Positions 1 to 13,225 of a DNA stretch of 13,225 nt are shown here, one piece after another. The stretch covers positions 1 through 13,225 of IMG/VR virus record IMGVR_UViG_3300045988_135330; one strand, 5' to 3'. The notes under the pieces were generated by a model that was not told the DNA's origin, did no database searches, and saw only the letters and a list, made by a program, of their open reading frames with translations. The DNA comes from a virus. A program made the translations under genes and the position numbers. Numbering within the stretch: the stretch's first letter is position 1; each line of letters starts with the position of its first letter.

Positions 1-32
1 TTAAAGTACCCCCCTCTCGATAGCAAGCAGGT

Positions 33-129
33 CACTTTCCCACTTTAGCATGGTAAAGTGCTAAAGTGCTAAAGCGATAAAGCAAGACAGCAATGCTTTA
101 GTATAGTAAAGTGTTAAAGCGGTGAAGCG
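33..129. repeat. Terminal arrays of AAAG(T/C)G units in both orientations (mirrored at 13097-13193)
   Basis: CACTTT occurs at 33-38 and 41-46. Four tandem 8-bp units fill 53-84 (GTAAAGTG CTAAAGTG CTAAAGCG ATAAAGCA). GCTTTAG is at 95-101. Three more units fill 106-129 (GTAAAGTG TTAAAGCG GTGAAGCG). The extreme terminus TTAAAGTA (1-8) contains the same core. CACTTTA (41-47) and TAAAGTG (54-60) form an inverted pair. Confidence 0.85.
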
Positions 130-130
130 A

Positions 131-200
131 GTACAAATGATTGGACAGTTGGCGAGTACAAATAATTGGACTGATAAAGCGTACAAATAATTGGACAGTT
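131..200. repeat. Three direct 18-20 bp repeats spaced exactly 25 bp apart (mirrored at 13026-13095)
   Basis: GTACAAATGATTGGACAGTT is at 131-150, GTACAAATAATTGGACTG at 156-173 and GTACAAATAATTGGACAGTT at 181-200. The starts at 131, 156 and 181 are 25 bp apart. Confidence 0.9.
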
Positions 201-260
201 AGAAAATAAAAAAATAATACCTTTACGCAATAAAGAGCAAAAATATTTAGTTAAATAGAA

Positions 261-289
261 TTAACAAATACATAAAAGAAAAATATAAT
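261..289 (+). promoter_or_regulatory. Sigma-A-type promoter, outer one of the left ITR
   Basis: TTAACA (261-266), a 17-nt spacer, then TATAAT (284-289). It reads inward and sits in an A/T-rich context. Confidence 0.55.
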
Positions 290-305
290 GTTTACAAATT
301 ATTCA

Positions 306-334
306 TTGACAATGGCGGTGTAGTGTGGTATACT
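306..334 (+). promoter_or_regulatory. Near-consensus sigma-A promoter with extended -10, inner one of the left ITR
   Basis: TTGACA (306-311), a 17-nt spacer ending in TGG (326-328), then TATACT (329-334). The predicted transcription start is near 341, giving an ~84-nt leader before the ATG at 425. Confidence 0.8.
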
Positions 335-343
335 ATATATAGA

Positions 344-377
344 GTTAAGGGAGAGGACAGGAAAAGAAAACCTTAAC
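344..377 (+). other. Leader hairpin in the ITR 5' UTR (mirrored at 12849-12882)
   Basis: GTTAAGG (344-350) pairs with CCTTAAC (371-377) around a 20-nt purine-rich loop. It lies between the inner promoter and the 16-bp palindrome. The ITR substitution at 360 falls in the loop. Confidence 0.5.
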
Positions 378-393
378 AAATAAAATTTTTAAA

Positions 394-409
394 GTTGCAA
401 CGTTGCAAC
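394..409. promoter_or_regulatory. 16-bp double palindrome GTTGCAACGTTGCAAC, copy 1 (perfect)
   Basis: Exact match read from the sequence. It is preceded by AAA, lies inside ITR-L, and ends 15 nt before the ATG at 425. Confidence 0.9.
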
Positions 410-424
410 AGAAAGGAAAAGACC

Positions 425-1093
425 ATGGAGAACATTATTAAATCAGAAAGCACAAACATCATGAACACATTTAAGAGTAACGCACTCAGAGAAAGTACTC
501 AGCGTATCTTTACAAGAATGGTGAATGTAGAGGATAACAAGAAAGCTATCTGTACAGACCTTGCGGAGATATACAACAAAGGTACATGGAAAGACGATTT
601 CGGCGATTTTGGGGACTACACATTGACAATGTTTAATATCACAAAGTCAACAGCAAGCCGTATGAGAAGAGTTTCCGACAAGTTCATAACTGACATCAAC
701 TCACCGCTTGACGCTGATATGTATACTTTTAATCAGCTTGCTGTACTTGTAACTCTTGACAATGAAGTCATTGAGAACTCAACTGTAAATCCAGATATGA
801 CTATAAAACAGCTGAGAGAATTTGTCAACAGTACAAAGGCTCTTGAAATGAAAGACACAGAGAAAGCAGAGAAAGCAGAGGAAGCAGAGGAAGCAGAGGA
901 AAAGGAAGAGGAAGTAACAACGGCTGATAGTTGCAACGTTGCAACTAATGAAGAGCAAGTTCCAAGAGGTATTCAGCATTTTGCAAGCCTTAAAGATTTG
1001 TCAATCTGGGTAAATGCACTCATGGAGAAAAGAGAAAACCTTGAAAATATCGACATAAGTTTTGACGTTACAACAACACACACTGAGTATTAA
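425..1093 (+). CDS. Early protein, candidate HTH DNA-binding protein with an acidic EKA/EEA repeat (222 aa)
   Basis: The ATG at 425 follows the SD GAAAGGA (411-417). The ORF-track TTG start at 395 lies inside the palindrome and is unlikely. This is the first gene downstream of the ITR promoters. The segment ICTDLAEIYNKGTWKDDFGDFGDYTLTMFNITKSTASRMRRVSDKF has the layout I associate with ParB/KorB-like or DUF3102-like helix-turn-helix regions. The CDS call is strong; the function is tentative. Confidence 0.8.
   Translation: MENIIKSESTNIMNTFKSNALRESTQRIFTRMVNVEDNKKAICTDLAEIYNKGTWKDDFGDFGDYTLTMFNITKSTASRMRRVSDKFITDINSPLDADMYTFNQLAVLVTLDNEVIENSTVNPDMTIKQLREFVNSTKALEMKDTEKAEKAEEAEEAEEKEEEVTTADSCNVATNEEQVPRGIQHFASLKDLSIWVNALMEKRENLENIDISFDVTTTHTEY
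860..913 (+). repeat. Tandem 9-bp coding repeat (GAGRAAGCA-like, 6 units)
   Basis: The units are gagaaagca gagaaagca gaggaagca gaggaagca gaggaaaag gaagaggaa, encoding EKAEKAEEAEEAEEKEEE. This is an in-frame acidic linker in the first CDS. Confidence 0.9.
930..945. promoter_or_regulatory. 16-bp double palindrome, copy 2 (perfect, intragenic)
   Basis: Exact match inside CDS 425-1093, encoding (D)SCNVAT. It ends 178 nt upstream of the next start at 1124. Confidence 0.85.
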
Positions 1094-1103
1094 CTACTCA
1101 GTG
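1081..1103 (+). other. 9-bp stem hairpin enclosing the stop codon of the first CDS
   Basis: CACTGAGTA (1081-1089) pairs with TACTCAGTG (1095-1103). The loop TTAAC contains the TAA stop (1091-1093). No U-tract follows, so it is not a classical intrinsic terminator. Confidence 0.6.
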
Positions 1104-1123
1104 TGAAAAAAGGAGTGATTATA

Positions 1124-1330
1124 ATGAAAAGGCTTTTTAAGTGCGAGCTATGCGGTAAGATTTATGAAGATGAAATAAAAGCTAAACAGTGTGAAAAAGA
1201 GCATGAATACCCATCAGAGGTTAAGCCCCTTGCTTATGGTGAGGGTTCCATATACCCATATAAAGTTAAAGTAAAGTTTGGCAATTGTGAAGCGGTTTAC
1301 AGATATGACAGCGGTTTGTGGGGTATGTAG
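1124..1330 (+). CDS. Small early protein with a zinc-finger-like CxxC-x12-C-x3-H motif (68 aa)
   Basis: The ATG at 1124 lies 8 nt after AGGAG (1111-1115). The track's GTG start at 1103 lies in the hairpin and has no SD. The relevant sequence is KCELCGKIYEDEIKAKQCEKEH. Confidence 0.75.
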   Translation: MKRLFKCELCGKIYEDEIKAKQCEKEHEYPSEVKPLAYGEGSIYPYKVKVKFGNCEAVYRYDSGLWGM

Positions 1331-1332
1331 CT

Positions 1333-1494
1333 ATGAAGATAACGATAAAATCAGTCGTAACAATCCTATTGACAATTGTTTTTTGCCTACTATCATTAGC
1401 AGGAAAGATAACAAGTGAACAGTACATGACAGTTTTTACAACTGTAATCGCATTCTATTTTGGTACTCAGTTTTCAAAAAATGGTAAAGTCTAA
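1333..1494 (+). CDS. Holin candidate (53 aa, two predicted transmembrane segments)
   Basis: This ORF is not in the supplied track, probably because it is too short; I translated it by hand as MKITIKSVVTILLTIVFCLLSLAGKITSEQYMTVFTTVIAFYFGTQFSKNGKV*. It has two hydrophobic stretches and a charged C-terminus. Its TAA overlaps the next ATG (TAATG at 1492-1496), and it lies directly upstream of the endolysin. Confidence 0.65.
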   Translation: MKITIKSVVTILLTIVFCLLSLAGKITSEQYMTVFTTVIAFYFGTQFSKNGKV

Positions 1495-1703
1495 TGTGGA
1501 GTACGATAATAGTTGCGGTGTTATCCCTGATAGGCACATTTATTGGCAGTTATTCAGGGTTTAAGCTAACAGAGTACAGGGTGCAACAATTGGAAAAACG
1601 AGTAGCAGAGCATAACAACTTTGCAAGGCGTTTACCAGTAGTAGAAGAACAAATAAAGGTAATTAACCATAGATTAACAGATTTAGAGGTAAAAGAAAAA
1701 TGA
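1494..1703 (+). CDS. Membrane-anchored coiled-coil lysis accessory protein (XhlA/BhlA-like holin-family layout, 69 aa)
   Basis: An N-terminal hydrophobic segment (WSTIIVAVLSLIGTFIGSYSGF) is followed by a charged helical region (RVQQLEKRVAEHNNF...INHRLTDLEVKEK). The gene is coupled on both sides by overlaps: TAATG upstream and ATGA at 1700-1703. Confidence 0.6.
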   Translation: MWSTIIVAVLSLIGTFIGSYSGFKLTEYRVQQLEKRVAEHNNFARRLPVVEEQIKVINHRLTDLEVKEK

Positions 1704-2368
1704 CGTTTAAGGAATATATTTCTAAAACCCTAGGAAAATCAATTGAGTTTGACGGGGTTTACCCTTATCAGTGTTGCGACTTAGTTAATGACTATATGCA
1801 GAAATGTTTCAATGTTTTTACATACTACCCCTATAATTTTAACGCTCAGCAGTATTTCACAAGGTTCAATGAGGTATCAGCTCTTGTAAAAAATTTTACA
1901 AAAATTTCAAATACTCCTGAGTTTGTACCAATGCAAGGTGATATTTGTATTTTTAAGTCGCCTGACAACATCGGACACATCTCAATAGCAACTGGTGAGG
2001 GAAATACAAGCTATTTTTACAGTTATGACCAAAACTGGAACGGGCACAACTTTGTAGCAAAAGAGAGACATACTTATACTAATTTCTTAGGGGTTCTGAG
2101 ATATAAAGGCAATGCACTTGACACAACAGGACTAAAACGCGGTGATAATAATGCAGGAGTTTACGCTTACAAAATGATGTTAAAATTGGCAAAGACTTGT
2201 AAAATAATTAGTGCAGGTGTTGATTTTAACGGAATTTACGGAAAAGGCACTGAAAAGGCTACAAACGAGATTTTGCGAAAGTTAAAAAAGAAAGAAAACG
2301 GAATAGCAGGAGTAAAACTGGTCAATGCACTTTATGAAGCTATTCTTGACAAAATAGTTAATTTTTAA
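1700..2368 (+). CDS. Endolysin: N-terminal CHAP domain plus C-terminal PG_binding_1-like domain (222 aa)
   Basis: The CHAP catalytic signature is present: YPYQCCDLVNDYM (Cys), GHISIATG (His) and YDQNWN. The C-terminal GDNNAGVYAYKMMLKLA...DFNGIYGKGTEKATNEILRK fits the peptidoglycan-binding repeat pattern. The SD AGAGGT lies 8-9 nt upstream. Confidence 0.9.
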   Translation: MTFKEYISKTLGKSIEFDGVYPYQCCDLVNDYMQKCFNVFTYYPYNFNAQQYFTRFNEVSALVKNFTKISNTPEFVPMQGDICIFKSPDNIGHISIATGEGNTSYFYSYDQNWNGHNFVAKERHTYTNFLGVLRYKGNALDTTGLKRGDNNAGVYAYKMMLKLAKTCKIISAGVDFNGIYGKGTEKATNEILRKLKKKENGIAGVKLVNALYEAILDKIVNF

Positions 2369-2521
2369 CAGTTAATACGTTATGTGAGCATTTAACAATA
2401 CAACAGCAAATTGATAATAATTAACATTACAAAATAAGAGTGCTAAACCGCTATTGTTATTTTAACGTACATAACTATTATATTAAACAAATTACAAAAA
2501 CATGGAAAGAGGTTTTAAAAC

Positions 2522-2860
2522 ATGAACGGATTTAACGTAAACATGACTAAAAAGGATATTTTTAACGCTAAGAGCGGAAGTATCTCAATCAAGACAGCAG
2601 AGGCGAGCGAGTGGAATACTGTTTCTGGTTGTGCAGTGGTAGAAAATGGTGGACTTGACAGAGATAAGAAGCCATGTGATATAGGTTACATTGCTACAGA
2701 TATTGGAGTTTTCGGATTCTCTTCAAAGGTATGCATTGACCACATGGAAGAACTGGCAGATATTCTTAGCGACTGCCTTAATGACGGCGAAGAAGTAAAG
2801 GTAAGATTTGTCAAAGGCAAGTCAACCAAGGGAGAGTTTTATTCAATCCAGGTACAGTAA
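2522..2860 (+). CDS. Single-stranded DNA-binding protein candidate (phi29 p5-like, 112 aa)
   Basis: The SD GAAAGAGG (2505-2512) precedes the start. DIFNAKSG, the central YIATDIGVFGFSSKV and the C-terminal VKVRFVKGKSTKGEFYSIQV resemble phi29 p5 as I recall it (IFNAQTG ... FKVKVVQGTSSKGNVFFSLQL). The size is also similar. Confidence 0.5.
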   Translation: MNGFNVNMTKKDIFNAKSGSISIKTAEASEWNTVSGCAVVENGGLDRDKKPCDIGYIATDIGVFGFSSKVCIDHMEELADILSDCLNDGEEVKVRFVKGKSTKGEFYSIQVQ

Positions 2861-2874
2861 ATAACAAATCGGAA

Positions 2875-2902
2875 AACGTGGCAATAAAAAAGTTGCCACG
2901 TT
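2875..2902 (+). other. 10-bp stem hairpin built from a half-site plus the first part of palindrome copy 3
   Basis: AACGTGGCAA (2875-2884) pairs with TTGCCACGTT (2893-2902) around the loop TAAAAAAG. It lies just after the stop of CDS 2522-2860. Confidence 0.7.
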
Positions 2903-2907
2903 GCAAC
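2892..2907. promoter_or_regulatory. 16-bp double palindrome, copy 3 (variant GTTGCCACGTTGCAAC)
   Basis: One substitution, A to C at 2897. Its reverse complement, GTTGCAACGTGGCAAC, is identical to the variant at 8447. It ends 23 nt before the portal ATG at 2931. Confidence 0.85.
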
Positions 2908-2930
2908 CGATTGAAAAGGGGTGAAGAAAA

Positions 2931-3875
2931 ATGGGTTCAAAAATAAAGCCGTGGAACTGGAGTGAATTCGGAGTTTCAAACATCGATAAAACACAATTAA
3001 CGAGCTACTATTATAAAATGTTGCTAAATCGTGTTATCAATATGTTTACATGGGAGAACTTACCAAATACCATCGATGAACAGGTGATGAACTTTTGGCT
3101 ATTTGTGACAGGAAGAGTTGTGTTTACCGAGTTCAATGGAAAACTGTATGCACTAAATGGAAATTATGGCGGATATCCAAATGAGTACTATTTACCTACA
3201 GAATTTGTTATTGCAAATCCAATTTTAGGAAATAAAATTGTAAAGTTGGACGTTGACGGGGTGGCAATGTTTAATAGCGATACTGACAAATACCCCACAC
3301 AAACAATGACGGGTGGTTTATACCCTATACTAACACTAACGGCAAATATGTTAGCTGATTGTGTGGTAACAATATCCAGTGCATTGAAAAACGGCAGAGT
3401 TCAAACCGCATTTTTGTGCAAAGACGATACGGTAAGAATTGCAGGTGAAAAAGTTTTAAAACAGTTATATAATGGTAACCCCGCTGTCATGATTGACGAC
3501 ACTATACTAAATTGCATTTCGCCAATCAAAATGGCAGATAATACAAGCGTCGCTACAATTCTACAGCAGACGGTTGAAACATATCAATTTTGGCTTGCAA
3601 ATTTTTACAATTCAATTGGAGTAAATGCAAATTTCAATATGAAAAGAGAACGGCTAAATACAGCAGAGGTTAACATCAATGATAGTGCATTGTTTGTGAA
3701 TGTTGTAAATATGCTAAACAACAGACAGCAGGCACTTGAAAAAATTAACAAAATGTTTGGTACAAACATAACTGTTGAGATTTCTGAGGAATGGAAAGAC
3801 TTGACAGAAACTGAGGAAAACCCTACAGAGAAAGAGCCTACAGAGGAAGAGGGGGGAAGACAATGCGGAAGATAA
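2931..3875 (+). CDS. Portal (upper collar / connector) protein, phi29 gp10-like (314 aa)
   Basis: MFTWENLPNTIDEQ matches the FEWENLPPTIN motif I recall near the N-terminus of phi29 gp10. The length (~310 aa) and acidic C-terminal tail also fit. The SD AAGGGGTG lies 7 nt upstream. Confidence 0.85.
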   Translation: MGSKIKPWNWSEFGVSNIDKTQLTSYYYKMLLNRVINMFTWENLPNTIDEQVMNFWLFVTGRVVFTEFNGKLYALNGNYGGYPNEYYLPTEFVIANPILGNKIVKLDVDGVAMFNSDTDKYPTQTMTGGLYPILTLTANMLADCVVTISSALKNGRVQTAFLCKDDTVRIAGEKVLKQLYNGNPAVMIDDTILNCISPIKMADNTSVATILQQTVETYQFWLANFYNSIGVNANFNMKRERLNTAEVNINDSALFVNVVNMLNNRQQALEKINKMFGTNITVEISEEWKDLTETEENPTEKEPTEEEGGRQCGR

Positions 3876-4540
3876 TAACGTTAAATAAATGGGTTGAATT
3901 ATTCCCCACTATACAGACTATTTTTGATAAGGTATCAGCAGACTTGAAAATATTTACAATTTTTACATCAGCTGAAATGTTTTATTATTTTGCAGATAAG
4001 TTTGGCGAGCGTGATTTTTACAAGTTTTATGATAGTGAAAACACAACAAGTAACACTAACATGGTAAAACAAGCAAGCGACTATATAGCATTATATGGAA
4101 AATCTCACAAGTACGAATATGACAAGTTAGTTGACACTCTATCATTGGAATATAATCCCATTGAAAACTATTCCATGACAGAAAAAGGAACAGACACAAG
4201 AACACCAAACATCACGCAAACAAACAAGGGTGTAAATACAAATACTGTAGGTGTTGACACATCAATTACAACTGGAAAGACAACTTTTGACAAATTTGAT
4301 AGTTTTATCAATGATACAAAAACTACCAATACGGGAACTAATACCGATACGCAGGATATAAACACTACAGTTACCACGGCAGGAAATGAAAAAACTGTAC
4401 ATGAATTTACAAGAAGTGGTAATATAGGAGTTACAACGTCACAGCAGATGATTGAAAGCGAAAGAGAGTTAGCAATGTTCTCTGTAGTTGATTTATTTGC
4501 GAAAGCTATAGCTGATATAATTCTAATCGGCGTATATTAA
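3863..4540 (+). CDS. Lower collar (tail tube) protein candidate, gp11-like (225 aa)
   Basis: It follows the portal gene with a 13-nt overlap and has the strong SD GAGGGGGGA. LEYNPIENY and GNIGVTTSQQMIESE are motifs I associate with lower collar proteins of small podophages. There is a central Thr/Asn-rich low-complexity stretch. Confidence 0.6.
   Translation: MRKIITLNKWVELFPTIQTIFDKVSADLKIFTIFTSAEMFYYFADKFGERDFYKFYDSENTTSNTNMVKQASDYIALYGKSHKYEYDKLVDTLSLEYNPIENYSMTEKGTDTRTPNITQTNKGVNTNTVGVDTSITTGKTTFDKFDSFINDTKTTNTGTNTDTQDINTTVTTAGNEKTVHEFTRSGNIGVTTSQQMIESERELAMFSVVDLFAKAIADIILIGVY
4513..4521 (+). promoter_or_regulatory. Extended -10 promoter candidate (TGATATAAT)
   Basis: TG-A-TATAAT lies at 4513-4521, inside the 3' end of the lower-collar gene and 20 nt upstream of palindrome copy 4. 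There is no good -35. Confidence 0.35.
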
Positions 4541-4541
4541 A

Positions 4542-4557
4542 GTTGCAACGTTGCAAC
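4542..4557. promoter_or_regulatory. 16-bp double palindrome, copy 4 (perfect)
   Basis: Exact match, preceded by AAA. It starts 1 nt after the lower-collar stop and ends 24 nt before the ATG at 4582. Confidence 0.9.
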
Positions 4558-4581
4558 TAGGAAAGGAGAAAAAATAAAAAA

Positions 4582-4902
4582 ATGCAAAAAGTGAGAAGTC
4601 CAACTTTTGCTGAAAATTATGTCAATTTAGCGAGAGCAGTTGTATTAAAAGTAGTAGTAGATACACTCCAAAACAAGGAAGATTTAAAAGACTATATTTT
4701 ATATAGTGATGATTTTGTGTTTTGGTTATGCCTTGCAGATTGGTTAAAATATGAAAATGTTATTAAAGATAAGGTTTCATGTTTTAAAGGGATTGACAAT
4801 ACGCTAAGAAAGAAACTAAATAACTATTATCGCTTAAAAGGCGAAGAAATGAAAAGAGGTAAATTATATGAAAGTTACACAAATTGCCACAATTTTGAAT
4901 GA
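4582..4902 (+). CDS. Hypothetical protein (106 aa), located where phi29 carries its scaffold gene
   Basis: The ORF follows palindrome copy 4 and AGGAAAGGAG, although the SD-to-ATG spacing of ~13 nt is long. It overlaps the capsid gene by 35 nt. I recognise no motifs. Confidence 0.55.
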   Translation: MQKVRSPTFAENYVNLARAVVLKVVVDTLQNKEDLKDYILYSDDFVFWLCLADWLKYENVIKDKVSCFKGIDNTLRKKLNNYYRLKGEEMKRGKLYESYTNCHNFE

Positions 4903-6025
4903 AGCACAGCAGGAGATAATCGGAGAAGCCGCAATAACAACGGAAAATCTTGAAAACGTTGTTGATATGGGCAAGCAGATTTTGGAAGCTACAGACGTTG
5001 ACAACTATGTTCGCAAGCTGATTGACAAAGTCGGCAGAATGATTTTTGTAGACAGGGTTTACAACTCAACAGCTCCTGATATTTTGACGGATAGTTGGGA
5101 GTATGGCTATGCAATGCAAAAAGTCCGCTGTGAAATGCCTGACGCAGTTGAGAATGACAGTTGGAAATTGACAAACGGTCAGAGTTATGACCCATTCGTA
5201 TTTACAGCTCCTGACGTGCAGTCAAAATTTTATGATAGCAAGGTAACGTACGAAGTGCAGATGTCATTTACAGAAATGCAGGTCAAGAGTGCATTTAATT
5301 CACCTGCTGAAATGAATAGCTTTTTTGCTATGATTGAGAACAGAATACGTTTTAAGCTCACTTTGTCAAATGACATACTTAAAACACGAACTGTTAATAA
5401 TCTTATCGCAGAGAAGATACACAGCAATAACAATGTTGTTAATCTTTTGACAATGTATAACACAGAGTTTACTCAGACCCTGAAAGCAGACCATGCTCTT
5501 ATGGATAAAGATTTTCTAAGATATGCAATTGGCAAAATCAAGGAGTATATCAAGTACATTCAGCGTCCGTCAATGCTGTTCAATGACGGCGGTTACACAA
5601 CTTTCACTCCTGAAAGTGACATGAAAATGGTGCTTTTGTCACGATTTGTAAATACTGCTGAGGTTTATCTACAGAGTGACACGTTCCACAATGACCTTGT
5701 GAAGCTAAGTGGTTATTCTGAGGTTCCATACTGGCAGGGTAGCGGAACGGGTGAAACGTTTGATTTTGCAGAAATTTCAAAAATCGATGTTACAACTGCT
5801 AGCGGTAACAAGGTATCTCAGATAGGTATTATTGGAACTATTTTTGACAGAGACGCTTGTATGGTCTGCAATGCTAATCCGAGGGTTACAAGTATTTACA
5901 ATCCAAAAGGAGAATATTGGAATTACTTCTACAAATACGATGCAAGCTATTTCAATGATACCATGGAAAACTGTGTTGTATTTATAGTAGCAGACACAGC
6001 AAAAAAAACCAGTATAACAAAATGA
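4868..6025 (+). CDS. Major capsid protein, phi29 gp8-like (385 aa)
   Basis: The SD AAGAGGT lies 8 nt upstream. NPKGEYWNYFYKYD resembles the NPRGLYWNYYY motif I recall near the end of the HK97-fold part of phi29 gp8, and LIDKVGRMIFVDR resembles LVDRIGLVVIRQ. The size and position also fit. Confidence 0.8.
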   Translation: MKVTQIATILNEAQQEIIGEAAITTENLENVVDMGKQILEATDVDNYVRKLIDKVGRMIFVDRVYNSTAPDILTDSWEYGYAMQKVRCEMPDAVENDSWKLTNGQSYDPFVFTAPDVQSKFYDSKVTYEVQMSFTEMQVKSAFNSPAEMNSFFAMIENRIRFKLTLSNDILKTRTVNNLIAEKIHSNNNVVNLLTMYNTEFTQTLKADHALMDKDFLRYAIGKIKEYIKYIQRPSMLFNDGGYTTFTPESDMKMVLLSRFVNTAEVYLQSDTFHNDLVKLSGYSEVPYWQGSGTGETFDFAEISKIDVTTASGNKVSQIGIIGTIFDRDACMVCNANPRVTSIYNPKGEYWNYFYKYDASYFNDTMENCVVFIVADTAKKTSITK

Positions 6026-6033
6026 TAGTTAAA

Positions 6034-6061
6034 ACGTTGCAACCCTAAAAAGTTGCAACGT
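6034..6061 (+). other. 10-bp stem hairpin built from a half-site plus the first part of palindrome copy 5
   Basis: ACGTTGCAAC (6034-6043) pairs with GTTGCAACGT (6052-6061) around the loop CCTAAAAA. It lies just after the capsid gene stop. Confidence 0.7.
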
Positions 6062-6067
6062 TGCAAC
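6052..6067. promoter_or_regulatory. 16-bp double palindrome, copy 5 (perfect), with an extra half-site GTTGCAAC at 6036-6043
   Basis: Exact match. It ends 19 nt before the ATG at 6087 and is followed by TATATT and the SD GAGGTG. Confidence 0.9.
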
Positions 6068-6086
6068 TATATTGAGGTGAGAAAAA

Positions 6087-6587
6087 ATGCCAATTATAAC
6101 AACGTATCAATGTTCGCAGGACGTGAGAACAATTTCAAAAACGTTAACAAATGCAATAGAGTATAATTGTGAAATACTGGATACTATGAACAGTTTTTCA
6201 CCCCGTATAAGATTATTTTGCACGTCCGAAACGTTTAATGCAAATATGGTGTATATACCATTTTTTGATAGGTTTTATCATATAATTTCAGCAGACGTTG
6301 AGAGTGCTGAAACCATTATTTTACAATGCGAGTTTGATATATTTACCTATTCAGTAGCACTACTATCTAGCGAATTTTTAGTTACTAGAAATGAAAATAT
6401 ATGTAGCACATATATCCCTGATACAATGTTACCATTAAAAGGTAATAAGGAAATGAAAGTAATTGAATTTACTGGCGGAGATTTTAACCTTGACACTGCC
6501 ACGGCAAATAGTTACAATTTTGTGCTAAATGTTGCAGGCGGTGGAAGTAATCAAGGAACGGTGGAAAACGGGGGATTGGACACATGA
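6087..6587 (+). CDS. Tail knob N-terminal-domain-like protein (166 aa)
   Basis: The SD GAGGTG lies 7 nt upstream. ANMVYIPFFDRFYHIISADVESAETIILQCEFDIFTY resembles the N-terminal part of phi29 gp9 as I recall it (...YIMFQN..KWFYAFVTELEF...HFEIDVLQTW). The gene ends in an ATGA overlap with the next ORF. Confidence 0.55.
   Translation: MPIITTYQCSQDVRTISKTLTNAIEYNCEILDTMNSFSPRIRLFCTSETFNANMVYIPFFDRFYHIISADVESAETIILQCEFDIFTYSVALLSSEFLVTRNENICSTYIPDTMLPLKGNKEMKVIEFTGGDFNLDTATANSYNFVLNVAGGGSNQGTVENGGLDT
6490..6518 (+). promoter_or_regulatory. Near-consensus sigma-A promoter candidate inside a coding region
   Basis: TTGACA (6490-6495), a 17-nt spacer, then TACAAT (6513-6518). It lies about 65 nt upstream of the ATG at 6584. 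Confidence 0.35.
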
Positions 6588-8671
6588 AATTAAATCAAGA
6601 AATTTATTCTAGTGATCGCAGTATATCACTAGAATTTTTAAAGGGGATTAAAACTACACAATCAATGAAAACATTAATTGATAATGGTAAATTACAGTTA
6701 AATAATACCATTGATGAAACAATTTTTTATGCGGTTGATTTTAACCCTCCTGACGATTATTTTATAAGAAGTGGGTATCGTAAACCTCATCAATCGGAAT
6801 TTGTTAAGGGAACGAAAACTCCGAGCGGTGTATGCGCTATGTTTGGTAGATTAAATACTAATGATACATTACAAAATCGCCCCTCACTTGGTAACCAAAC
6901 TATAACTACATATCATAGACTGGCATATGATAGTGACAAGAGTGATAGTTTAGGCTATTATTTTGGCACTGAGTATAAATTGAAAGATTTTCTTTTTTTG
7001 ATTCGTGTGATAGTGAGTAAATTTGAATATTCTGATATGGGTGACGTATCGTCATTTAGTGATAAAATTGACGTAGACGTACAAACATTTGAAACCACAT
7101 ATAAAAATACACATCATATTGTAGGAATATACGCACTACCATATTATTTAAGAGCTGAACATCATGATAGAAAACGATGTCAGGGGTTTAATATTATACC
7201 ATTTTGCACATATTCAAAAAATTCTATTACGGATAATTATGATATTTATGGCGCGTTATATTTTAGCGATTATGATCAGTCACACGCTGTTTTAAATACG
7301 TTTATGTATGGGGTTGATGACATATACCCTTCTTATTTTAATACCTATGATTATGTTTATGCAAATTTAGGGTTTATTGATTTGTGGAATAAAACATATT
7401 TTGCTATTGGTAGTAATGAATATACGGGATATTTACCAGTTTTCAATTATAGCATAGAAAACATTCATAAATTATATAGCAGAATGGGAACATATTACAC
7501 ATTTTCGGAAAATTTAGCAAAGCAGGAAAATCTAAACCAAAATGGAATATATTGCGGTATTATATCAGACGATGGAAAAATCACTGGAAAATATTCTGAG
7601 GGTGTAGAAAATGCAAAACAAATACAGACAACATGGGATAAGCCGACAGATTGGCAAAATAACCCATTTAACGGCATAGGCAATACAGACCCAAACAATT
7701 ACACTGATAAAATAGACCTAAACAAACCGACGCTATCTAATGTGAATGTTTTCAATAGGTCATTTGCGGTCACGTCAAATAATGTTCGTCAACTTGCTGA
7801 TTTTTTGTGGAACGCTGACGAGACTAAATTTCAAGAAATTGTAAAAGGGTTAGCGTTAATGGGTGAAAACCCTATGAATGGCATTATTGACTTGCGTTTA
7901 TTTCCGTTTAATGTGGCGTTAAAAAATTCTGCAACAAATGCCGAGCCTATTGTGATAGGCAGAACGAACACGGGCGTAAATGGTATTAAACTAACGGAAA
8001 ATGTAAACAGTTTAATTGATTTAGGTGAATGCACATTTTTTACTAAATTCAAAAATTTCCTAGATTATGAACCATACACAACAGCACAACTATACATCCC
8101 ATATATAGGGGTAGTACCAGTTTCAACAGCTGAATTTATGGGACATAGAATATCGGTTAAAATGATAGTTGACTATACCACGGGTGCAAGCACTGCGATA
8201 GTCTTCAAAGACGATATACCGTTTATTTACAGAAATGGTGTAGTAGGCATATCAATTCCAATGACTGGAAATGATAGTGCAAGTTATGCTAACACAGTTA
8301 TCGGCAATGTAGTTAGCGGTGCAGTAGGCGGCGTAACATCAATTGCTAGTGGAAATATCGGCGGAATGGTTAGCAGTGCAGAAAAAATTTACAGCGGTTT
8401 TACAACTGGTACGAATTACCAAGAGGCGAGTGCAAGTTCTCCATCTGTTGCAACGTGGCAACCGCAAAAGTGCTATTTCATTATTGACCGCCCTATTTTA
8501 AATGTACCTGATAATTACGGGCGAACGATTGGTTTTGCGTGTGAAAAAACTGGTAAACTATCAGATTTTAAGGGTTTTACAGTTGTTAGCAACCCTGAAA
8601 TAAATTTCAGGTGTACAGACAGCGAAAGACAATATATAGTAAATATGTTACAAGGCGGTGTATTTGTATGA
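6584..8671 (+). CDS. Tail knob (distal tail) protein, gp9-like C-terminal portion with a large inserted or unknown N-terminal region (695 aa)
   Basis: QLYIPYIGVVPVSTAEFMGHRISVKMIVDYTTG, the Gly/Ala/Ser-rich hydrophobic stretch GNVVSGAVGGVTSIASGNIGGMVSS, and the C-terminal GFACEKTGKLSDFKGFTVVSNPEINFRCTDSERQYIVNMLQGGVFV resemble phi29 gp9 as I recall it (YPYC..., its GGGISAGASAAGGSALGMASS loop, and its C-terminal KYGY...ISGDI...IRTIFDNGI). Confidence 0.6.
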   Translation: MKLNQEIYSSDRSISLEFLKGIKTTQSMKTLIDNGKLQLNNTIDETIFYAVDFNPPDDYFIRSGYRKPHQSEFVKGTKTPSGVCAMFGRLNTNDTLQNRPSLGNQTITTYHRLAYDSDKSDSLGYYFGTEYKLKDFLFLIRVIVSKFEYSDMGDVSSFSDKIDVDVQTFETTYKNTHHIVGIYALPYYLRAEHHDRKRCQGFNIIPFCTYSKNSITDNYDIYGALYFSDYDQSHAVLNTFMYGVDDIYPSYFNTYDYVYANLGFIDLWNKTYFAIGSNEYTGYLPVFNYSIENIHKLYSRMGTYYTFSENLAKQENLNQNGIYCGIISDDGKITGKYSEGVENAKQIQTTWDKPTDWQNNPFNGIGNTDPNNYTDKIDLNKPTLSNVNVFNRSFAVTSNNVRQLADFLWNADETKFQEIVKGLALMGENPMNGIIDLRLFPFNVALKNSATNAEPIVIGRTNTGVNGIKLTENVNSLIDLGECTFFTKFKNFLDYEPYTTAQLYIPYIGVVPVSTAEFMGHRISVKMIVDYTTGASTAIVFKDDIPFIYRNGVVGISIPMTGNDSASYANTVIGNVVSGAVGGVTSIASGNIGGMVSSAEKIYSGFTTGTNYQEASASSPSVATWQPQKCYFIIDRPILNVPDNYGRTIGFACEKTGKLSDFKGFTVVSNPEINFRCTDSERQYIVNMLQGGVFV
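8447..8462. promoter_or_regulatory. 16-bp double palindrome, copy 6 (variant GTTGCAACGTGGCAAC, intragenic)
   Basis: One substitution, T to G at 8457. It lies inside the tail gene and encodes VATWQ(P). It ends 205 nt before the start at 8668. Confidence 0.8.
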
Positions 8672-9219
8672 TGAATGAACATTTTGCAAGCGGTTTAACA
8701 AATGAGCAATTGAAAGCGGAGATTTTAAGGCAAGGGCGTAAAGCAAATTTACGCCTAAACCAATTGAAAAAAAGTGGAATGTACAGCAAAAACCCCATAA
8801 TTTCTAGTAAATGGAATACGTTTTTACACGAAAGTAAATTCTCAACAAAAAAGAATTTTTTTAAGACAGGTACAAAAGGTGAAACAAGAACAGAATTGTT
8901 AAAACACTATGTACAGATTAGACAGTTTTTAGGACAAAAAACGACAGTGAAAGAAACGAAAACTATCATGTCAAAACACGCAAAACGTTTAAATATTTCT
9001 GAGGAAAATGTTGATAAAGTTCTATCAATTTTTGGTAATAGCGGAATAAGTGCGGAGTTACCTAACAGCGATTTTGTGCAACAGTTTATTGCTGAAATGG
9101 TTGAAAATGGGTTTAATGATAATGAAATAAATTCATTGTTGAATACCCTTGAAAGTTCAGCACGAACACAAAATGAAATGTACGACTTAATGCGTGAGCA
9201 ATTACAAATGCTTGAATAG
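8668..9219 (+). CDS. Candidate terminal (priming) protein (183 aa)
   Basis: The ATG at 8668 overlaps the upstream stop (ATGA) and follows the SD AAGGCGGTG. The track's earlier start at 8611 lies deep in the tail gene. The gene sits immediately upstream of the protein-primed DNA polymerase, as in phi29. The basic N-terminal QGRKANLRLNQLKKSG loosely resembles the phi29 TP segment NTKAKIARTKKKYG. The function is tentative. Confidence 0.45.
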   Translation: MMNEHFASGLTNEQLKAEILRQGRKANLRLNQLKKSGMYSKNPIISSKWNTFLHESKFSTKKNFFKTGTKGETRTELLKHYVQIRQFLGQKTTVKETKTIMSKHAKRLNISEENVDKVLSIFGNSGISAELPNSDFVQQFIAEMVENGFNDNEINSLLNTLESSARTQNEMYDLMREQLQMLE

Positions 9220-9234
9220 TTGCAACGTTGCAAC
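9219..9234. promoter_or_regulatory. 16-bp double palindrome, copy 7 (perfect)
   Basis: Exact match. It overlaps the last base of the upstream TAG stop and ends 22 nt before the DNA polymerase TTG start at 9257. It is flanked by TTGAAT upstream and TATTTG downstream. Confidence 0.9.
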
Positions 9235-9256
9235 TATTTGTAAAGGGGTGTAATAG

Positions 9257-11395
9257 TTGATAAATGTAAATGATTTTGATTTTAACATTCTTAAAAATGG
9301 TAATTTACAAACAGTTACAACCCGTACAAGAGATAATCAGTTTATTGAATATTATAACGCTCCGTTTGCATTTGATATTGAAACGAGTTCATTTTATGAC
9401 GGAAAAAATAAACGTGCGTGTATGTACATTTTTATGTTTGCATTAAATGGAAATTATGTATATGGCAGAACATGGGAAGATTTTGACTTTACATTAAATA
9501 AGTTAAAAGAAGTGTTACAATTAAATGAATACAAAAGAATTATAATATATATTCACAATTTAGGCTATGAATTCCAATTTTTAATCGGTCATGAGCGTTT
9601 TAAAGATGTTTTTGCGAGAAACGCACGCCACCCGATTAAGTGTACTATGAATGAGTGTTTTGATTTAAAGTGCAGTTTAATGCTCAGTGGTATGAGTTTA
9701 GCAAAAACAGCGGAAGACCTGACAAGTGTAAAAATACAAAAATTAACAGGTGATTTGAATTATAAACTTGTAAGAACATGGAAAACCCCTCTAACACAAG
9801 AAGAATTAGGATATTGCGAATATGACGTTAAAATATTACACTATTTTATACTTGAAGAAATGGCAAAAAATGATAATGATATAACAAAAATACCATTAAC
9901 TAAAACAGGGTATGTAAGAAAATATTGCCAAAACTACATTAAAAAACACACATATTATCCAAAATATAGAGAGAAAATAAAAAAGATAGCCCCAATTGAT
10001 AAAGATTTATTTTGTTTATTACATAAAACTTTTATGGGCGGTTATACTCACGCTAACTATATGTATGTGGGAACGGTGCTTGAAAATGTTGCCAGTATCG
10101 ACTTTACAAGCTCTTATCCGTCCGTTATGATTAGAAAAAAGTACCCCATGCAACCATTTACAAAAGTTCACATAAAAGATTTAACAGATTTTAAATATTG
10201 TATTAAAAATTATCCTTGTGTTTTTGAGGTAGAATTAACTAACGTTATTGCTAAAAAATGTAATCACATTTTATCACGTTCAAAATGTTCTGTTTGTGAT
10301 AATGCGGTAGTTGATAATGGTAGAATTGTATCGGCAGATAGAATATTTACATATTTTACAGATATTGACTTTAAGGACTTTGAACAATTTTATTCTTATG
10401 AACATTTGTCAATTGGTAAATTTTACACGTCAAGTTATGGATATTTGCCTAAACAAATTATAGAATGTGCGTTAAAATTTTACAACGATAAGACAACATT
10501 AAAAGGCGTAGCAGGAAAAGAGGTTGAGTACCTAGTCGGCAAAGGAATGCTAAATAGTTTGTTTGGTATGTGTGTGACAAATCCTGTAAATGATGATATT
10601 GTTTTTGACGGAAAAGAATGGAATACAGAAAAGAAAGATATTACGGAATCATTACAAGAAAATTACATAAAAAATAAAAAGCAAGTGTTAGTATATCAGT
10701 GGGGAGTGTGGATAACGGCATGGGCAAGGCATGAACTTTTTAAGGGTATATTAAAAATTAATAATGATGTTATTTATTGTGATACTGATAGCATAAAATT
10801 TTTAAACTATGAGAATTATGAAAACTGGATAAATGAATATAATAAAAACTGTATTAACGAGATAAATAAGGCTTTAAATTATTATGAAATTAATTTGAAT
10901 TTGGCTAAACCTAAAACAATTAAAGGTGTTGAAAAGCCGTTAGGGGTATGGGATTTTGAGGGAGTTTATTCAAAATTCAAAACGTTAGGCGCAAAGCGTT
11001 ATGCCTATGAGCAAGACGAAAAATTTAATATTACAGTTTCAGGGTTAAATAAAAAGTGTGCCGTTCCGTACATAGTTGCAACGTTGCAACCGTTTGAATT
11101 TTTTGACAATGAAATGTATATACCTAAAGAATATACAGGAAAAAATACATTAACATATATTAATGACCCCTACAAAATTATGATAAAAGACTATCAGGGA
11201 AATTATGCAAAAGTGGCAGAAAATAGTTATATCCACATGGAGGAGCAAGATTATAACATGTCACTATCTGAACAATTCATATATTATTTAATTTGTGGTA
11301 CAAATTTCGGTGGCGGAGCAAAAGAGCATACATTATTTGAAAAAAGTCAAGAATTGGCTACAAATTTTTGGGAGTGTGATTTTAATGAGAAATGA
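9257..11395 (+). CDS. Family-B, protein-primed-type DNA polymerase (712 aa)
   Basis: The translation contains FAFDIETSS (ExoI), HNLGYEFQF (ExoII), YCEYDVKIL (ExoIII), DFTSSYPSVM (motif A, Dx2SLYP), KGMLNSLFGM (motif B, Kx3NSxYG), YCDTDSIKF (motif C) and LGAKRYAY (KxY). The TTG start at 9257 lies 6 nt after AAGGGGTG. An in-frame TAG sits at 9254-9256, and the first in-frame ATG lies after ExoI, so a non-ATG start is required. Confidence 0.95.
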   Translation: MINVNDFDFNILKNGNLQTVTTRTRDNQFIEYYNAPFAFDIETSSFYDGKNKRACMYIFMFALNGNYVYGRTWEDFDFTLNKLKEVLQLNEYKRIIIYIHNLGYEFQFLIGHERFKDVFARNARHPIKCTMNECFDLKCSLMLSGMSLAKTAEDLTSVKIQKLTGDLNYKLVRTWKTPLTQEELGYCEYDVKILHYFILEEMAKNDNDITKIPLTKTGYVRKYCQNYIKKHTYYPKYREKIKKIAPIDKDLFCLLHKTFMGGYTHANYMYVGTVLENVASIDFTSSYPSVMIRKKYPMQPFTKVHIKDLTDFKYCIKNYPCVFEVELTNVIAKKCNHILSRSKCSVCDNAVVDNGRIVSADRIFTYFTDIDFKDFEQFYSYEHLSIGKFYTSSYGYLPKQIIECALKFYNDKTTLKGVAGKEVEYLVGKGMLNSLFGMCVTNPVNDDIVFDGKEWNTEKKDITESLQENYIKNKKQVLVYQWGVWITAWARHELFKGILKINNDVIYCDTDSIKFLNYENYENWINEYNKNCINEINKALNYYEINLNLAKPKTIKGVEKPLGVWDFEGVYSKFKTLGAKRYAYEQDEKFNITVSGLNKKCAVPYIVATLQPFEFFDNEMYIPKEYTGKNTLTYINDPYKIMIKDYQGNYAKVAENSYIHMEEQDYNMSLSEQFIYYLICGTNFGGGAKEHTLFEKSQELATNFWECDFNEK
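11075..11090. promoter_or_regulatory. 16-bp double palindrome, copy 8 (perfect, intragenic)
   Basis: Exact match inside the polymerase gene, encoding VATLQ(P). It ends 294 nt upstream of the ATPase start at 11385. Confidence 0.85.
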
Positions 11396-12476
11396 ATACT
11401 ATTCACTAAAAAAGATTAATAAGTTAAATGCTTTATACAATTTAATTATAGGGCAACGCTCAAACGGAAAAACTTACGCAGTATGTGAACAGGAAGTAAA
11501 AGGAAATTTTAAAGAGGGGTATAGAATGGCATATATTAGAAGATATGATGAGGAAATTATGCCAAAAAATATACAAAATCTGTTTAAGCCCCATTCAGCT
11601 TTAATTGAAAAATTATCCAACGGCCAGTTTAACAGCACTGTATACAAGAATAGGGAATTTTTCCTATATAATACAGATACGGAAGAAAAAAGTGAACAAA
11701 GTTTTTGCAAGTGTTTTTCCCTTAATGCGTGGGAACGTACAAAAGGTGCTGACAATGGTTACTTTAAATATATACTATTTGACGAATTTATGACCCGTTC
11801 TTTTTATCTTAATAATGAATTTGTTACATTTACTAACCTTTTATCATCTATTATTCGTGATAGAGATAATTCAATTATTTACATGATAGCCAATACAGTA
11901 AACCAGTACTGTCCGTATTTTGCGGAAATGGGTTTAGGCAAAATTTCAGATATTAAACAGGGCGACTTGAAATTATTTACATATGGTGAAAGTGAGCTAA
12001 CACTAGCCCTTGAATATTCTGACAGTAAGGGTAAAACGGAAAAAGTTAGTAAATATTTTGCTTTTGACAATCCTCAATTGAAAATGATAACAACGGGGCA
12101 GTGGGAAATTAAAAACTACCCACACGCACCATTTAAAATTAAAAAAGAAAATATAGTATACAGAGCATATATATTCTTCGACAATGACGTCATCGCGTGC
12201 AATATTGTGCATTATGAAAATACTGTTTTTCTATTTTTTAACATTCAGACAAAAACGGAAAGCCTTGATTTAAAAAAAAGAGTTGTGTACAGTTTTGAAA
12301 CTGACACGAACCCTCTACACGTTCAATCACTAGCAGAACAACCGACAGATGTACATAAACTTATTAATAATTTAATAACATTTAATCGTGTGTTTTATGC
12401 GGATAACTCAGTAGGTGAAATTGTTAGAAACTGGATAAACGCACAAAACAAGCACGCTATCAGTATAAGGACATAA
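11385..12476 (+). CDS. DNA encapsidation (packaging) ATPase, phi29 gp16-like (363 aa)
   Basis: The ATG at 11385 follows the SD GGGAGTG and overlaps the polymerase 3' end by 11 nt. The track's start at 11295 has no SD. Walker A (GQRSNGKT) and Walker B (KYILFDEF) are present. The size and last-gene position match phi29-type packaging ATPases. Confidence 0.85.
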   Translation: MRNEYYSLKKINKLNALYNLIIGQRSNGKTYAVCEQEVKGNFKEGYRMAYIRRYDEEIMPKNIQNLFKPHSALIEKLSNGQFNSTVYKNREFFLYNTDTEEKSEQSFCKCFSLNAWERTKGADNGYFKYILFDEFMTRSFYLNNEFVTFTNLLSSIIRDRDNSIIYMIANTVNQYCPYFAEMGLGKISDIKQGDLKLFTYGESELTLALEYSDSKGKTEKVSKYFAFDNPQLKMITTGQWEIKNYPHAPFKIKKENIVYRAYIFFDNDVIACNIVHYENTVFLFFNIQTKTESLDLKKRVVYSFETDTNPLHVQSLAEQPTDVHKLINNLITFNRVFYADNSVGEIVRNWINAQNKHAISIRT

Positions 12477-12480
12477 AAAT

Positions 12481-12527
12481 AACCCCGTGAAATTAATCAC
12501 GGGGTTTGTTTTTTTTTTTTTTTTTTT
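12481..12527. terminator. Bidirectional intrinsic terminator with a 19-nt T run
   Basis: AACCCCGTGA (12481-12490) pairs with TCACGGGGTT (12497-12506) around the loop AATTAA, followed by TG and T19 (12509-12527). On the minus strand the same stem is followed by ATTTTTAT. It lies between the convergent ATPase gene and the leftward ORF. Confidence 0.9.
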
Positions 12528-12528
12528 G

Positions 12529-12798
12529 TTATATCACATAATCTCTTAATACCGTCCGTAGTGTTATCATAGATATTTTATAATTTGCTGGATAAACATC
12601 ACTAATTATAGCAGTTAAATCAACAAACAGACAATCAGCTCCGTATATTTTATTAACAACTCTATCATAAAATTTTTTTGATTCTACTATAACTTCGTGT
12701 CGAACTTGTGAATAAATTATAACTTTATTTGCATTATCTTTATTCCATTCACCTATAGCTTTTTTAATACCCTTAACTTCTGTGCCATTAATTTTCAT
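12529..12798 (-). CDS. Right-end early protein, unknown function (89 aa)
   Basis: On the minus strand the ATG at 12798 follows the ITR-encoded SD GAAAGGA. The longer track ORF starting at 12822 begins inside the palindrome. It is the only leftward gene and is driven by the ITR-R promoters. Confidence 0.75.
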   Translation of the reverse strand: MKINGTEVKGIKKAIGEWNKDNANKVIIYSQVRHEVIVESKKFYDRVVNKIYGADCLFVDLTAIISDVYPANYKISMITLRTVLRDYVI

Positions 12799-12815
12799 AT
12801 TAATCAATCCTTTCT

Positions 12816-12831
12816 GTTGCAACGTTGCAAC
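12816..12831. promoter_or_regulatory. 16-bp double palindrome, copy 9 (perfect)
   Basis: Exact match inside ITR-R. It lies 17 nt upstream, in the minus-strand sense, of the ATG at 12798. Confidence 0.9.
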
Positions 12832-12891
12832 TTTAAAAAATTTTATTTGTTAAGGTTTTCTTTTCTTGTCCTCTCCCTTAACTCTATATAT

Positions 12892-12920
12892 AGTATATCA
12901 CACTACACCGCCATTGTCAA
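12892..12920 (-). promoter_or_regulatory. Near-consensus sigma-A promoter with extended -10, inner one of the right ITR
   Basis: Mirror of 306-334. On the minus strand it reads TTGACA (12920-12915), 17 nt, then TGA-TATACT (-10 at 12897-12892). It drives the leftward ORF 12798-12529. Confidence 0.8.
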
Positions 12921-12936
12921 TGAATAATTTGTAAAC

Positions 12937-12965
12937 ATTATATTTTTCTTTTATGTATTTGTTAA
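12937..12965 (-). promoter_or_regulatory. Sigma-A-type promoter, outer one of the right ITR
   Basis: Mirror of 261-289. On the minus strand it reads TTAACA (12965-12960), 17 nt, then TATAAT (12942-12937). Confidence 0.55.
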
Positions 12966-13225
12966 TTCTATTTAACTAAATATTTTTGCTCTTTATTGCG
13001 TAAAGGTATTATTTTTTTATTTTCTAACTGTCCAATTATTTGTACGCTTTATCAGTCCAATTATTTGTACTCGCCAACTGTCCAATCATTTGTACTCGCT
13101 TCACCGCTTTAACACTTTACTATACTAAAGCATTGCTGTCTTGCTTTATCGCTTTAGCACTTTAGCACTTTACCATGCTAAAGTGGGAAAGTGACCTGCT
13201 TGCTATCGAGAGGGGGGTACTTTAA

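Follow-up and report, generated by a model that had tools for sequence, protein, structure and literature searches.

A repeated 16-bp palindrome in a small phi29-like podovirus genome, its counterparts in sister phages and a candidate DUF3102-type binder

The DNA analysed here, referred to as the window (13,225 nucleotides, IMG/VR record IMGVR_UViG_3300045988_135330), is a complete 13.2-kb phi29-like podovirus genome with genes for a connector, a phi29-type major capsid protein, a protein-primed family B DNA polymerase and a gp16-type packaging ATPase. A whole-window search found no near-identical DNA among cultured phages. The genome is punctuated by copies of a 16-bp palindrome, GTTGCAACGTTGCAAC, and these sites are the subject of the present work, together with g01, an early gene whose product is their candidate binder. 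The features concerned are as follows.

1..417 (about 417 bp): left inverted terminal repeat, with its mirror image at ~12809-13225; holds the site at 394
261-289 and 306-334: two strong sigma-70-type promoters in the left terminal repeat, mirrored in the right repeat
394..409: perfect site in the left terminal repeat, ~55 nt 3' of the repeat promoter and 15 nt 5' of the g01 start
425..1093, + strand: g01, candidate binder, first gene after the left terminal-repeat promoter
930..945: perfect site in the g01 coding sequence, at the acidic-linker end, read CNVAT; 178 nt before the next gene
2875..2885: half-copy AACGTGGCAAT, which complements the left half of the palindrome at 2892; conserved in relatives
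2892..2907: one-mismatch site preceding the portal gene, with C at position 6; imperfect form kept in 17 of 18 relatives
4542..4557: perfect site ahead of the g09/major capsid block
6028..6043: degenerate site with 2 mismatches; its start lies exactly 24 bp (3 x 8) 5' of the start at 6052
6052..6067: perfect site preceding the tail genes
8447..8462: one-mismatch site within the 695-aa tail gene, position 11 being G; kept in 16 of 18 relatives
9219..9234: perfect site that overlaps the g13 stop codon and precedes the DNA polymerase gene
11075..11090: perfect site within the polymerase gene; the packaging ATPase gene starts 294 nt downstream; invariant in relatives
12816..12831: perfect site in the right terminal repeat; the leftward early gene 12798-12529 starts 17 nt downstream

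Copy number, placement and conservation of the palindrome

Seven perfect copies of the 16-mer were found in the window (starting at 394, 930, 4542, 6052, 9219, 11075 and 12816), along with two one-mismatch copies, at 2892 (GTTGCCACGTTGCAAC) and 8447 (GTTGCAACGTGGCAAC), and a two-mismatch copy at 6028-6043. The mismatch at 8447 is explained by a Trp codon that forces the G at position 11. In 200 dinucleotide-preserving shuffles the mean number of matches to the 16-mer was 0.08, and 10 matches were reached in none of them (0/200); the 8-mer GTTGCAAC occurred 17 times in the window, compared with 0.30 expected. The multi-copy palindrome is real, and the copy numbers and non-random occurrence claimed in the original prediction, which had called for a pattern search with 0-2 mismatches against shuffles, were borne out, the motif standing far above chance. 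Its two extra half-sites fared differently: the one at 2875-2885 is a genuine half-copy, kept in relatives, whereas 6036-6043 proved to be the right half of the degenerate full copy. The statement that the motif is not known from described phi29-like phages holds in the literature that could be searched. Since the sites at 394 and 12816 both lie inside the inverted terminal repeat, they represent one element seen twice, leaving 8 independent loci.

Six of the nine copies fall within the non-coding 5% of the genome (binomial P = 1e-6), and each gene block has a site in front of it. The gaps between site and start codon, read from the sequence, were 15, 23, 24, 19, 22 and 17 nt for the intergenic copies and 178, 205 and 294 nt to the next start for the in-gene copies, in agreement with the ranges given earlier (15-24 and 178-294 nt). 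Where a site is in-gene, it lies in the final 164-320 nt, and that gene overlaps its successor. In addition, the copies are spaced more regularly than expected from random placement (coefficient of variation, 0.37; P = 0.006).

Every site was retained across 18 close relatives recovered from viral metagenomes, with ~90% protein identity. Divergence among them was 1.9% in the 16-mer and 12.3% in the 40-nt flanks (Fisher P = 3e-64). The in-gene sites at 8447 and 11075 were invariant, with the adjoining codons varying synonymously. Thus, the motif is far less diverged than its flanks, in-gene sites included, which indicates selection on the DNA sequence. The rare substitutions within the motif concentrated at positions 6/11 and 8/9 and were one-sided.

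parS and private palindromes in sister phages

A total of 72 genomes were compared, namely 63 metagenomic genomes (major capsid protein 42-62% identical), the window and eight GenBank relatives. Nineteen of them carried 2-5 perfect copies of canonical parS (TGTTTCACGTGAAACA), typically one per terminal repeat, and no g01-like gene. In the window, no match to canonical parS (TGTTNCACGTGAAACA) was found within 3 mismatches. Twelve genomes contained a g01-like gene, and two or more parS sites were found in none of these 12; eight of the 12 had their own multi-copy palindrome, and one further g01-bearing genome had a single parS within its g01-like gene. A non-parS palindrome in at least two copies was present in just 4 of the 60 genomes without g01. 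Private sites are therefore co-distributed with g01-like genes and complementary to parS (Fisher P = 0.017 for the exclusion of multi-copy parS by g01; P = 1.6e-5 for the private palindrome-g01 association), although both contingency P values are optimistic on independence, since the compared genomes are related. The remaining genomes had neither multi-copy parS nor a g01-like gene, and the cultured relatives Phanie, astrithr and AD70P3 had no dispersed palindrome and no g01 homologue. The two groups are listed below.

parS-carrying sisters (19): L267, L271, L274, L275, L278, L280, L281, L283, L285-L289, L291, L293, L299, L313, L317, L321
Private palindromes of g01-bearing genomes: GTTGCAACGTTGCAAC (window), GTTCGACGTCGAAC, TTCCGTTTAAACGGAA (two genomes), TCTAGTCGACTAGA (15 copies), GTTAGTCGACTAAC, TTTCAAACGTTTGAAA, TTCCGATTAATCGGAA

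The search of related genomes for equivalent palindromes, which the original prediction had proposed, thus returned sisters with either parS or different private palindromes at equivalent junctions. Among 62 parS sites in 17 genomes, 49 were intergenic and 25 were no more than 500 nt from an end of the genome; many stood 14-22 nt 5' of a start codon. parS and the private sites share the same locations: terminal repeats, module junctions and positions 14-24 nt 5' of start codons. A placement just before the ribosome-binding site is common to true parS and is hence not in itself evidence for a promoter, translational or RNA role. The Shine-Dalgarno-adjacent placement described earlier accordingly stands as a position, but not as an argument for promoter or translational function. 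In phi29, five parS sites are used with the host Spo0J for entry of the genome into the forespore, that is, spore entrapment (PMC2731898). L287, a genome of the parS type, has its terminal-repeat parS immediately beside an extended -10 (TGTGTATAAT / TGTGTAGAAT), so that the host Spo0J could also repress early promoters.

The g01 protein, DUF3102-type genes and other features

The N-terminal ~140 residues of g01 appear to be DUF3102-like. An hhalign comparison of g01-type N-terminal domains with PF11300-positive proteins gave a probability of 97% (E = 7e-11), an 84%-identical g01 homologue carries the DUF3102 label in nr, and the g01-like protein of the sister phage L298 matches PF11300 with E = 3e-4 (21.3 bits, the cutoff being 24.4). 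Searched against Pfam, g01 itself gave no match at E <= 0.1. The AF2 model of g01 predicts an all-helical N-terminal domain, putatively of helix-turn-helix (HTH) type (~residues 10-145, pLDDT above 90), followed by an acidic disordered linker and a short C-terminal helix. The top 11 Foldseek matches of this domain in the PDB were all DNA-binding domains of ParB, Spo0J or Noc, the best being 4umk_D (Spo0J-parS; probability, 0.97), and the matches in a viral structure library included DUF3102 proteins and a 'chromosome partitioning protein'. The g01-like proteins differ between motif groups in the recognition-helix region, in which L298 and L276, with their common motif, resemble each other. These two phages and the window each have a site directly 5' of the ribosome-binding site of the g01-like gene.

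The exact 16-mer or its 14-bp core, TTGCAACGTTGCAA, was also linked to DUF3102-type genes in independent lineages. It was found in-gene, encoding NVATLQ, in ~20 Streptococcus-prophage-like loci, and the exact 16-mer lies inside the DUF3102-like open reading frames (ORFs) of L190 and L093. Three tandem 8-bp boxes (TTGCAACGTTGCAACGTTGCAC) precede the DUF3102 gene in small contigs of the cyanobacterium Chlorogloea sp. CCALA 695 (L129/L142), where they sit between this PF11300-positive gene and a divergent ORF of 62 aa that is ribbon-helix-helix-like. The g01 homologues of larger gut phages (L229-L251; 350-770 aa) have one or two copies of GTTGCGACGTCGCAAC, a symmetric change of the window motif at positions 6/11, in the acidic linkers of their own genes, read VATSQ. 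These proteins comprise a g01-like N-terminal domain, a Cys-rich middle and a conserved C-terminal domain (LPxLKNNDQRK...YYRYDL).

Many of the motif loci came from an exact-match search and carry its ascertainment bias; as a test free of it, DUF3102 homologues of cultured Streptococcus phages were selected by protein similarity alone. These genes (L252-L255: SW10, 7201, MissF and Javan146) contained a palindrome at +222 nt, just after the HTH-coding region. Its centre, CAACGTTG, was constant, and its arms co-varied symmetrically (GTTG...CAAC, CTGA...TCAG, GTGA...TCAG), the version of phage MissF being CTGACAACGTTGTCAG. The in-gene palindrome of these Streptococcus phages is an instance of DNA-level selection within a coding sequence. 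In temperate Streptococcus phages the DUF3102 gene stands directly after cro, in the early lytic operon; ORF2 of phage 7201 is a DUF3102 protein. In the literature searched, no work on the replication origin of phage 7201 and no characterisation of DUF3102 was found, the papers with this term concerning unrelated topics.

The motif was not confined to genomes with DUF3102-type genes. Tailed phages of ~16.7 kb (L042, L088, L080, L009 and L066; 44-56% GC) contained 5-17 copies of nTTGCAACGTTGCAAn per fetched locus, most of them 1-20 nt 5' of start codons that lack a Shine-Dalgarno sequence; at L080:12225 the palindrome alone separates two divergent start codons. L019 (with L080) and L032 also belong to this family, which has no Pfam-recognisable proteins save for a weak terminase match and whose capsid is distantly cyanophage- or archaeal-virus-like. 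A 324-aa protein of the family (family B) with an internal site was tried as a DUF3102 candidate (E, ~0.1) and rejected, as its hhalign probability was 11% and it is scaffold-like instead. Many copies were present in the 26-kb contig L021, four in the 66%-GC viral contig L029, and six, flanked by A5/T5 tracts, in L112, an integrative element on a contig from a Treponema metagenome-assembled genome (JAEDGP010000024). L112 and L109/L150 (from an Erysipelotrichaceae metagenome-assembled genome) encode an integrase or serine recombinase, a topoisomerase, MobL/MobA-type relaxases and HicB. The matches listed in a scan of bacterial genomes were mostly single and at chance level, and those bacterial loci with multiple or same-assembly matches that were examined were mobile elements (L112, L109/L150) or contigs with sigma-factor or HTH genes (L133, L146).

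Several further features were observed in the window. In the terminal repeat, tandem 8-bp CTAAAGTG-like units occupy positions 43-130 in two blocks (43-85 and 96-130), and three 25-bp direct repeats (GTACAAATRATTGGAC...) follow at 131-212, all of them mirrored in the right repeat; these are possible binding arrays for the terminal protein or another early DNA-binding protein. An 11-bp-stem hairpin (CACACTGAGTA...TACTCAGTGTG) spans the g01 stop codon at 1079-1105 and is followed by an A-run in the sense strand, so that, read in this direction, it is no classical terminator. No copy of the palindrome lies in the longest of the internal intergenic gaps (2369-2521, 153 nt), which is very AT-rich and has promoter-like hexamers at 2392-2421 and 2454-2481; g06 and the structural genes may be served by an internal promoter there. 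At 12477-12527 a bidirectional terminator hairpin (AACCCCGTGA...TCACGGGGTT), followed by ~25 T, separates the packaging ATPase gene from the convergent leftward early gene.

Candidate function, rival explanations and known systems

Co-distribution, co-variation and predicted fold all point to g01 as the binder of the palindrome, presumably as a dimer. On balance we favour, as rather probable, the reading that the 16-mer works as double-stranded DNA, being the site of g01, and that the sites form a private parS-like set, replacing the host parS of the sister phages. The original prediction had rightly listed the 425-1093 product among the proteins to be assayed for binding, and one of its four options was a KorB- or ParB-like site set; a phage-encoded binder, as proposed there, is now favoured, while the parS of the sisters and the DUF3102- and ParB-HTH-like predicted fold of g01 had escaped it.

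According to the favoured reading, g01 would be made first, from the terminal-repeat promoter, and would bind both the site just 5' of its own gene, in an autoregulatory manner, and the sites ~1.5 kb apart along the genome. The bound protein would mark and organise the phage chromosome. By analogy with phi29 parS/Spo0J, the proposed physiological outcome of the site set is that the phage genome would be tethered or partitioned when the host, probably a species of gut Clostridia or Erysipelotrichaceae, divides or sporulates, and read-through transcription across the sites would probably be damped. Autoregulation and damping appear likely because one site lies between the early promoter and g01.

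A number of observations weigh against this assignment. The match of g01 to the ParB fold is weak (best E = 0.13; TM-scores, 0.33-0.52), and a sequence-profile search of the PDB with g01 gave no ParB or other meaningful match. Pfam detected no ParB/Srx CTPase domain in g01 or the other window proteins, the g01 model contains none, and no ParA ATPase gene is present among the 16 ORFs of the window, which makes a full ParABS-like working impossible. The same 14-16-bp motif is abundant in unrelated phages (the five ~16.7-kb phages named above and L021), and no DUF3102-like protein was found in the ~16.7-kb family, L021, L029 or L112; neither did phmmer, jackhmmer, hmmsearch --max or hhalign reveal a binder gene shared among them. 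Such phages may use a binder encoded by the host or a resident element, as parS-type phages use Spo0J; if there is no such binder, the assignment of g01 is incomplete. A purely regulatory role would account just as well for the placement of the sites 5' of ribosome-binding sites and 3' of the terminal-repeat promoter. The relatedness of the compared genomes and the bias of the exact-match search, both mentioned above, count on the same side.

The main rival, which is compatible with a partition role, is that g01 does bind the sites, but purely as a genome-wide set of transcriptional operators that block or tune RNA polymerase read-through and set early/late timing and module ratios, with no part in segregation, in the manner of KorB OB sites, P1 C1 operators or stoperators. 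This is somewhat unlikely, yet several observations suit it: the site ~55 nt 3' of the terminal-repeat promoter and 15 nt before g01, the presence of a site before every gene block with the in-gene sites in the last 164-320 nt of overlapping genes, the location, in temperate Streptococcus phages, of a DUF3102 gene right behind cro within the early lytic operon and the terminal-repeat parS of L287 that abuts an extended -10 (TGTGTATAAT). However, canonical parS, whose role is ParB loading and segregation, fills the same positions in the sisters, so the placement may merely reflect the sole non-coding space available. Besides, operators do not need even spacing (P = 0.006), and no internal promoters were found from which the late genes could be transcribed after a roadblock, the recognisable promoters being those of the terminal repeats, with a site at ~+55 from one of them. 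The sites could alternatively be bound by a protein of the host or a resident element, hijacked as phi29 hijacks Spo0J. The unrelated phages and mobile elements with many motif copies and no detected DUF3102 gene would be accounted for in this way, as would the cyanobacterial assembly and several metagenome-assembled genomes with DUF3102-like genes near the motif. Nevertheless, in the small-phage clade the private palindromes co-occur with g01-like genes and vary between lineages, a site stands directly 5' of g01, and among the bacterial-genome matches listed no genome had the multi-copy pattern expected of a host regulon. We consider a host binder improbable.

Two other groups of explanations, both among the options of the original prediction, had even less in their favour. 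An RNA hairpin (6-bp stem, ACGU loop) in polycistronic mRNA, serving for processing, 5'/3' stabilisation or control of translation of the downstream gene, is suggested by the position of the motif directly 5' of ribosome-binding sites, by the upstream half-copies at 2892 and 6052, which permit an 11-bp stem, and by the gathering of substitutions at the loop-closing pair, positions 6/11. These substitutions are one-sided, though, and not compensatory; the hairpin is weak (-5.6 kcal/mol), and a structural element would not need one exact sequence for all copies in a genome. The equivalents in relatives are perfect palindromes of other sequences, including parS and TTCCGTTTAAACGGAA-like ones whose centre would have to melt, the sites of sister phages also lie at convergent junctions and in terminal repeats, and the motif associates with a protein of DNA-binding type; an RNA role is thus very improbable. 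Only the sites at 11075 (sense) and 2892 (antisense) passed a lax terminator scan, and none qualified as a stable GC-rich terminator. The A-rich upstream flank, tried as a terminator (antisense T-tract), applies to 2892 alone in the window. Least probable of all is a promoter core or p4-like activator site for middle or late transcription, or else a hairpin on the displaced single strand in protein-primed replication. The earlier observation that convincing promoters are few beyond the terminal repeats and that phage RNA polymerase is lacking was confirmed on both counts; the scarcity of sigma-70-like promoters, together with weak nAnAGT -10-like strings overlapping the left edge of several sites, would suit a promoter or activator element. 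Against it, there is no -35 or extended -10 at proper spacing and no -10 that is conserved at a constant distance from the sites, a sigma-70 promoter scan of the window tied no promoter to them, and the window contains neither a p4 homologue nor the phage polymerase. The distance between site and start codon varies from 15 to 294 nt, and a transcript begun after a site-edge -10 would often be without a ribosome-binding site. As for the displaced strand, a 6-bp DNA hairpin is unstable.

If the g01-site reading is correct, DUF3102, common in phages and plasmids, would receive its first function, sequence-specific DNA binding, with a motif family of the forms GTTGC-N-ACGT-N-GCAAC and xxxxCAACGTTGxxxx. 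The use of parS known from phi29 is widespread in uncultured small gut podoviruses, some lineages having apparently swapped to a private system. This points to a host-coupled, non-lytic lifestyle, with persistence in spores or a carrier state, for phages that are as a rule counted as strictly virulent, and it bears on how phages persist in the gut. The orthogonal protein/palindrome pairs would be a ready toolkit of DNA-binding specificities. A broader proposal can be put forward tentatively, as a possibility: DUF3102 proteins may be a widespread, hitherto unrecognised minimal ParB-like class, with a DNA-binding domain and no CTPase, borne by mobile elements, each with its own 14-16-bp palindrome that is often in-gene, and replacing the hijack of host Spo0J/parS in small protein-primed gut phages. 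A 'lytic' 13-kb phage would thereby be able to park, silence and segregate its own genome in gut Firmicutes, through spore entrapment or a carrier state.

Multi-copy palindromes that serve as sites for ParB-family or repressor proteins have been described before (phi29 parS, KorB OB, stoperators). New here are the site, its proposed pairing with a CTPase-less protein of DUF3102 type, the complementarity with the parS of sister phages and the family-wide habit of in-gene sites.

Among known systems, the met-boxes of MetJ, a ribbon-helix-helix protein, are tandem 8-bp boxes; two of these palindromic boxes (three or four at some loci) form a 16-bp palindrome, as in the window, where no ribbon-helix-helix protein is implicated. 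The stoperators of cluster A mycobacteriophages (L5 gp71) are asymmetric 13-mers, orientation dependent and bound by a monomeric immunity repressor (PMC9283540, PMC6550527). They resemble the present sites in being many copies of one short sequence, mostly in short gaps between gene blocks and served by one phage protein, but the window site is a perfect palindrome and no integrase or repressor gene is present in the window. With ParB, Noc and KorB (sites parS, NBS and OB) the likeness extends to 13-16-bp palindromes dispersed over the replicon, a site in or beside the protein's own gene and, if g01 is as predicted, a dimeric HTH protein, and the predicted g01 domain is nearest to those of ParB, Spo0J and Noc; in contrast to them, g01 lacks both a ParB/Srx CTPase domain and a ParA or KorA partner and has no significant ParB sequence similarity, lying in the uncharacterised DUF3102 neighbourhood. 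For its part, phi29 parS (PMC2731898) differs in that the window motif is not parS, its presumed binder is phage-encoded instead of the host Spo0J, and the copies number 9-10 compared with five in phi29; both systems belong to small protein-primed podoviruses and consist of several 16-bp palindromes with a central ACGT.

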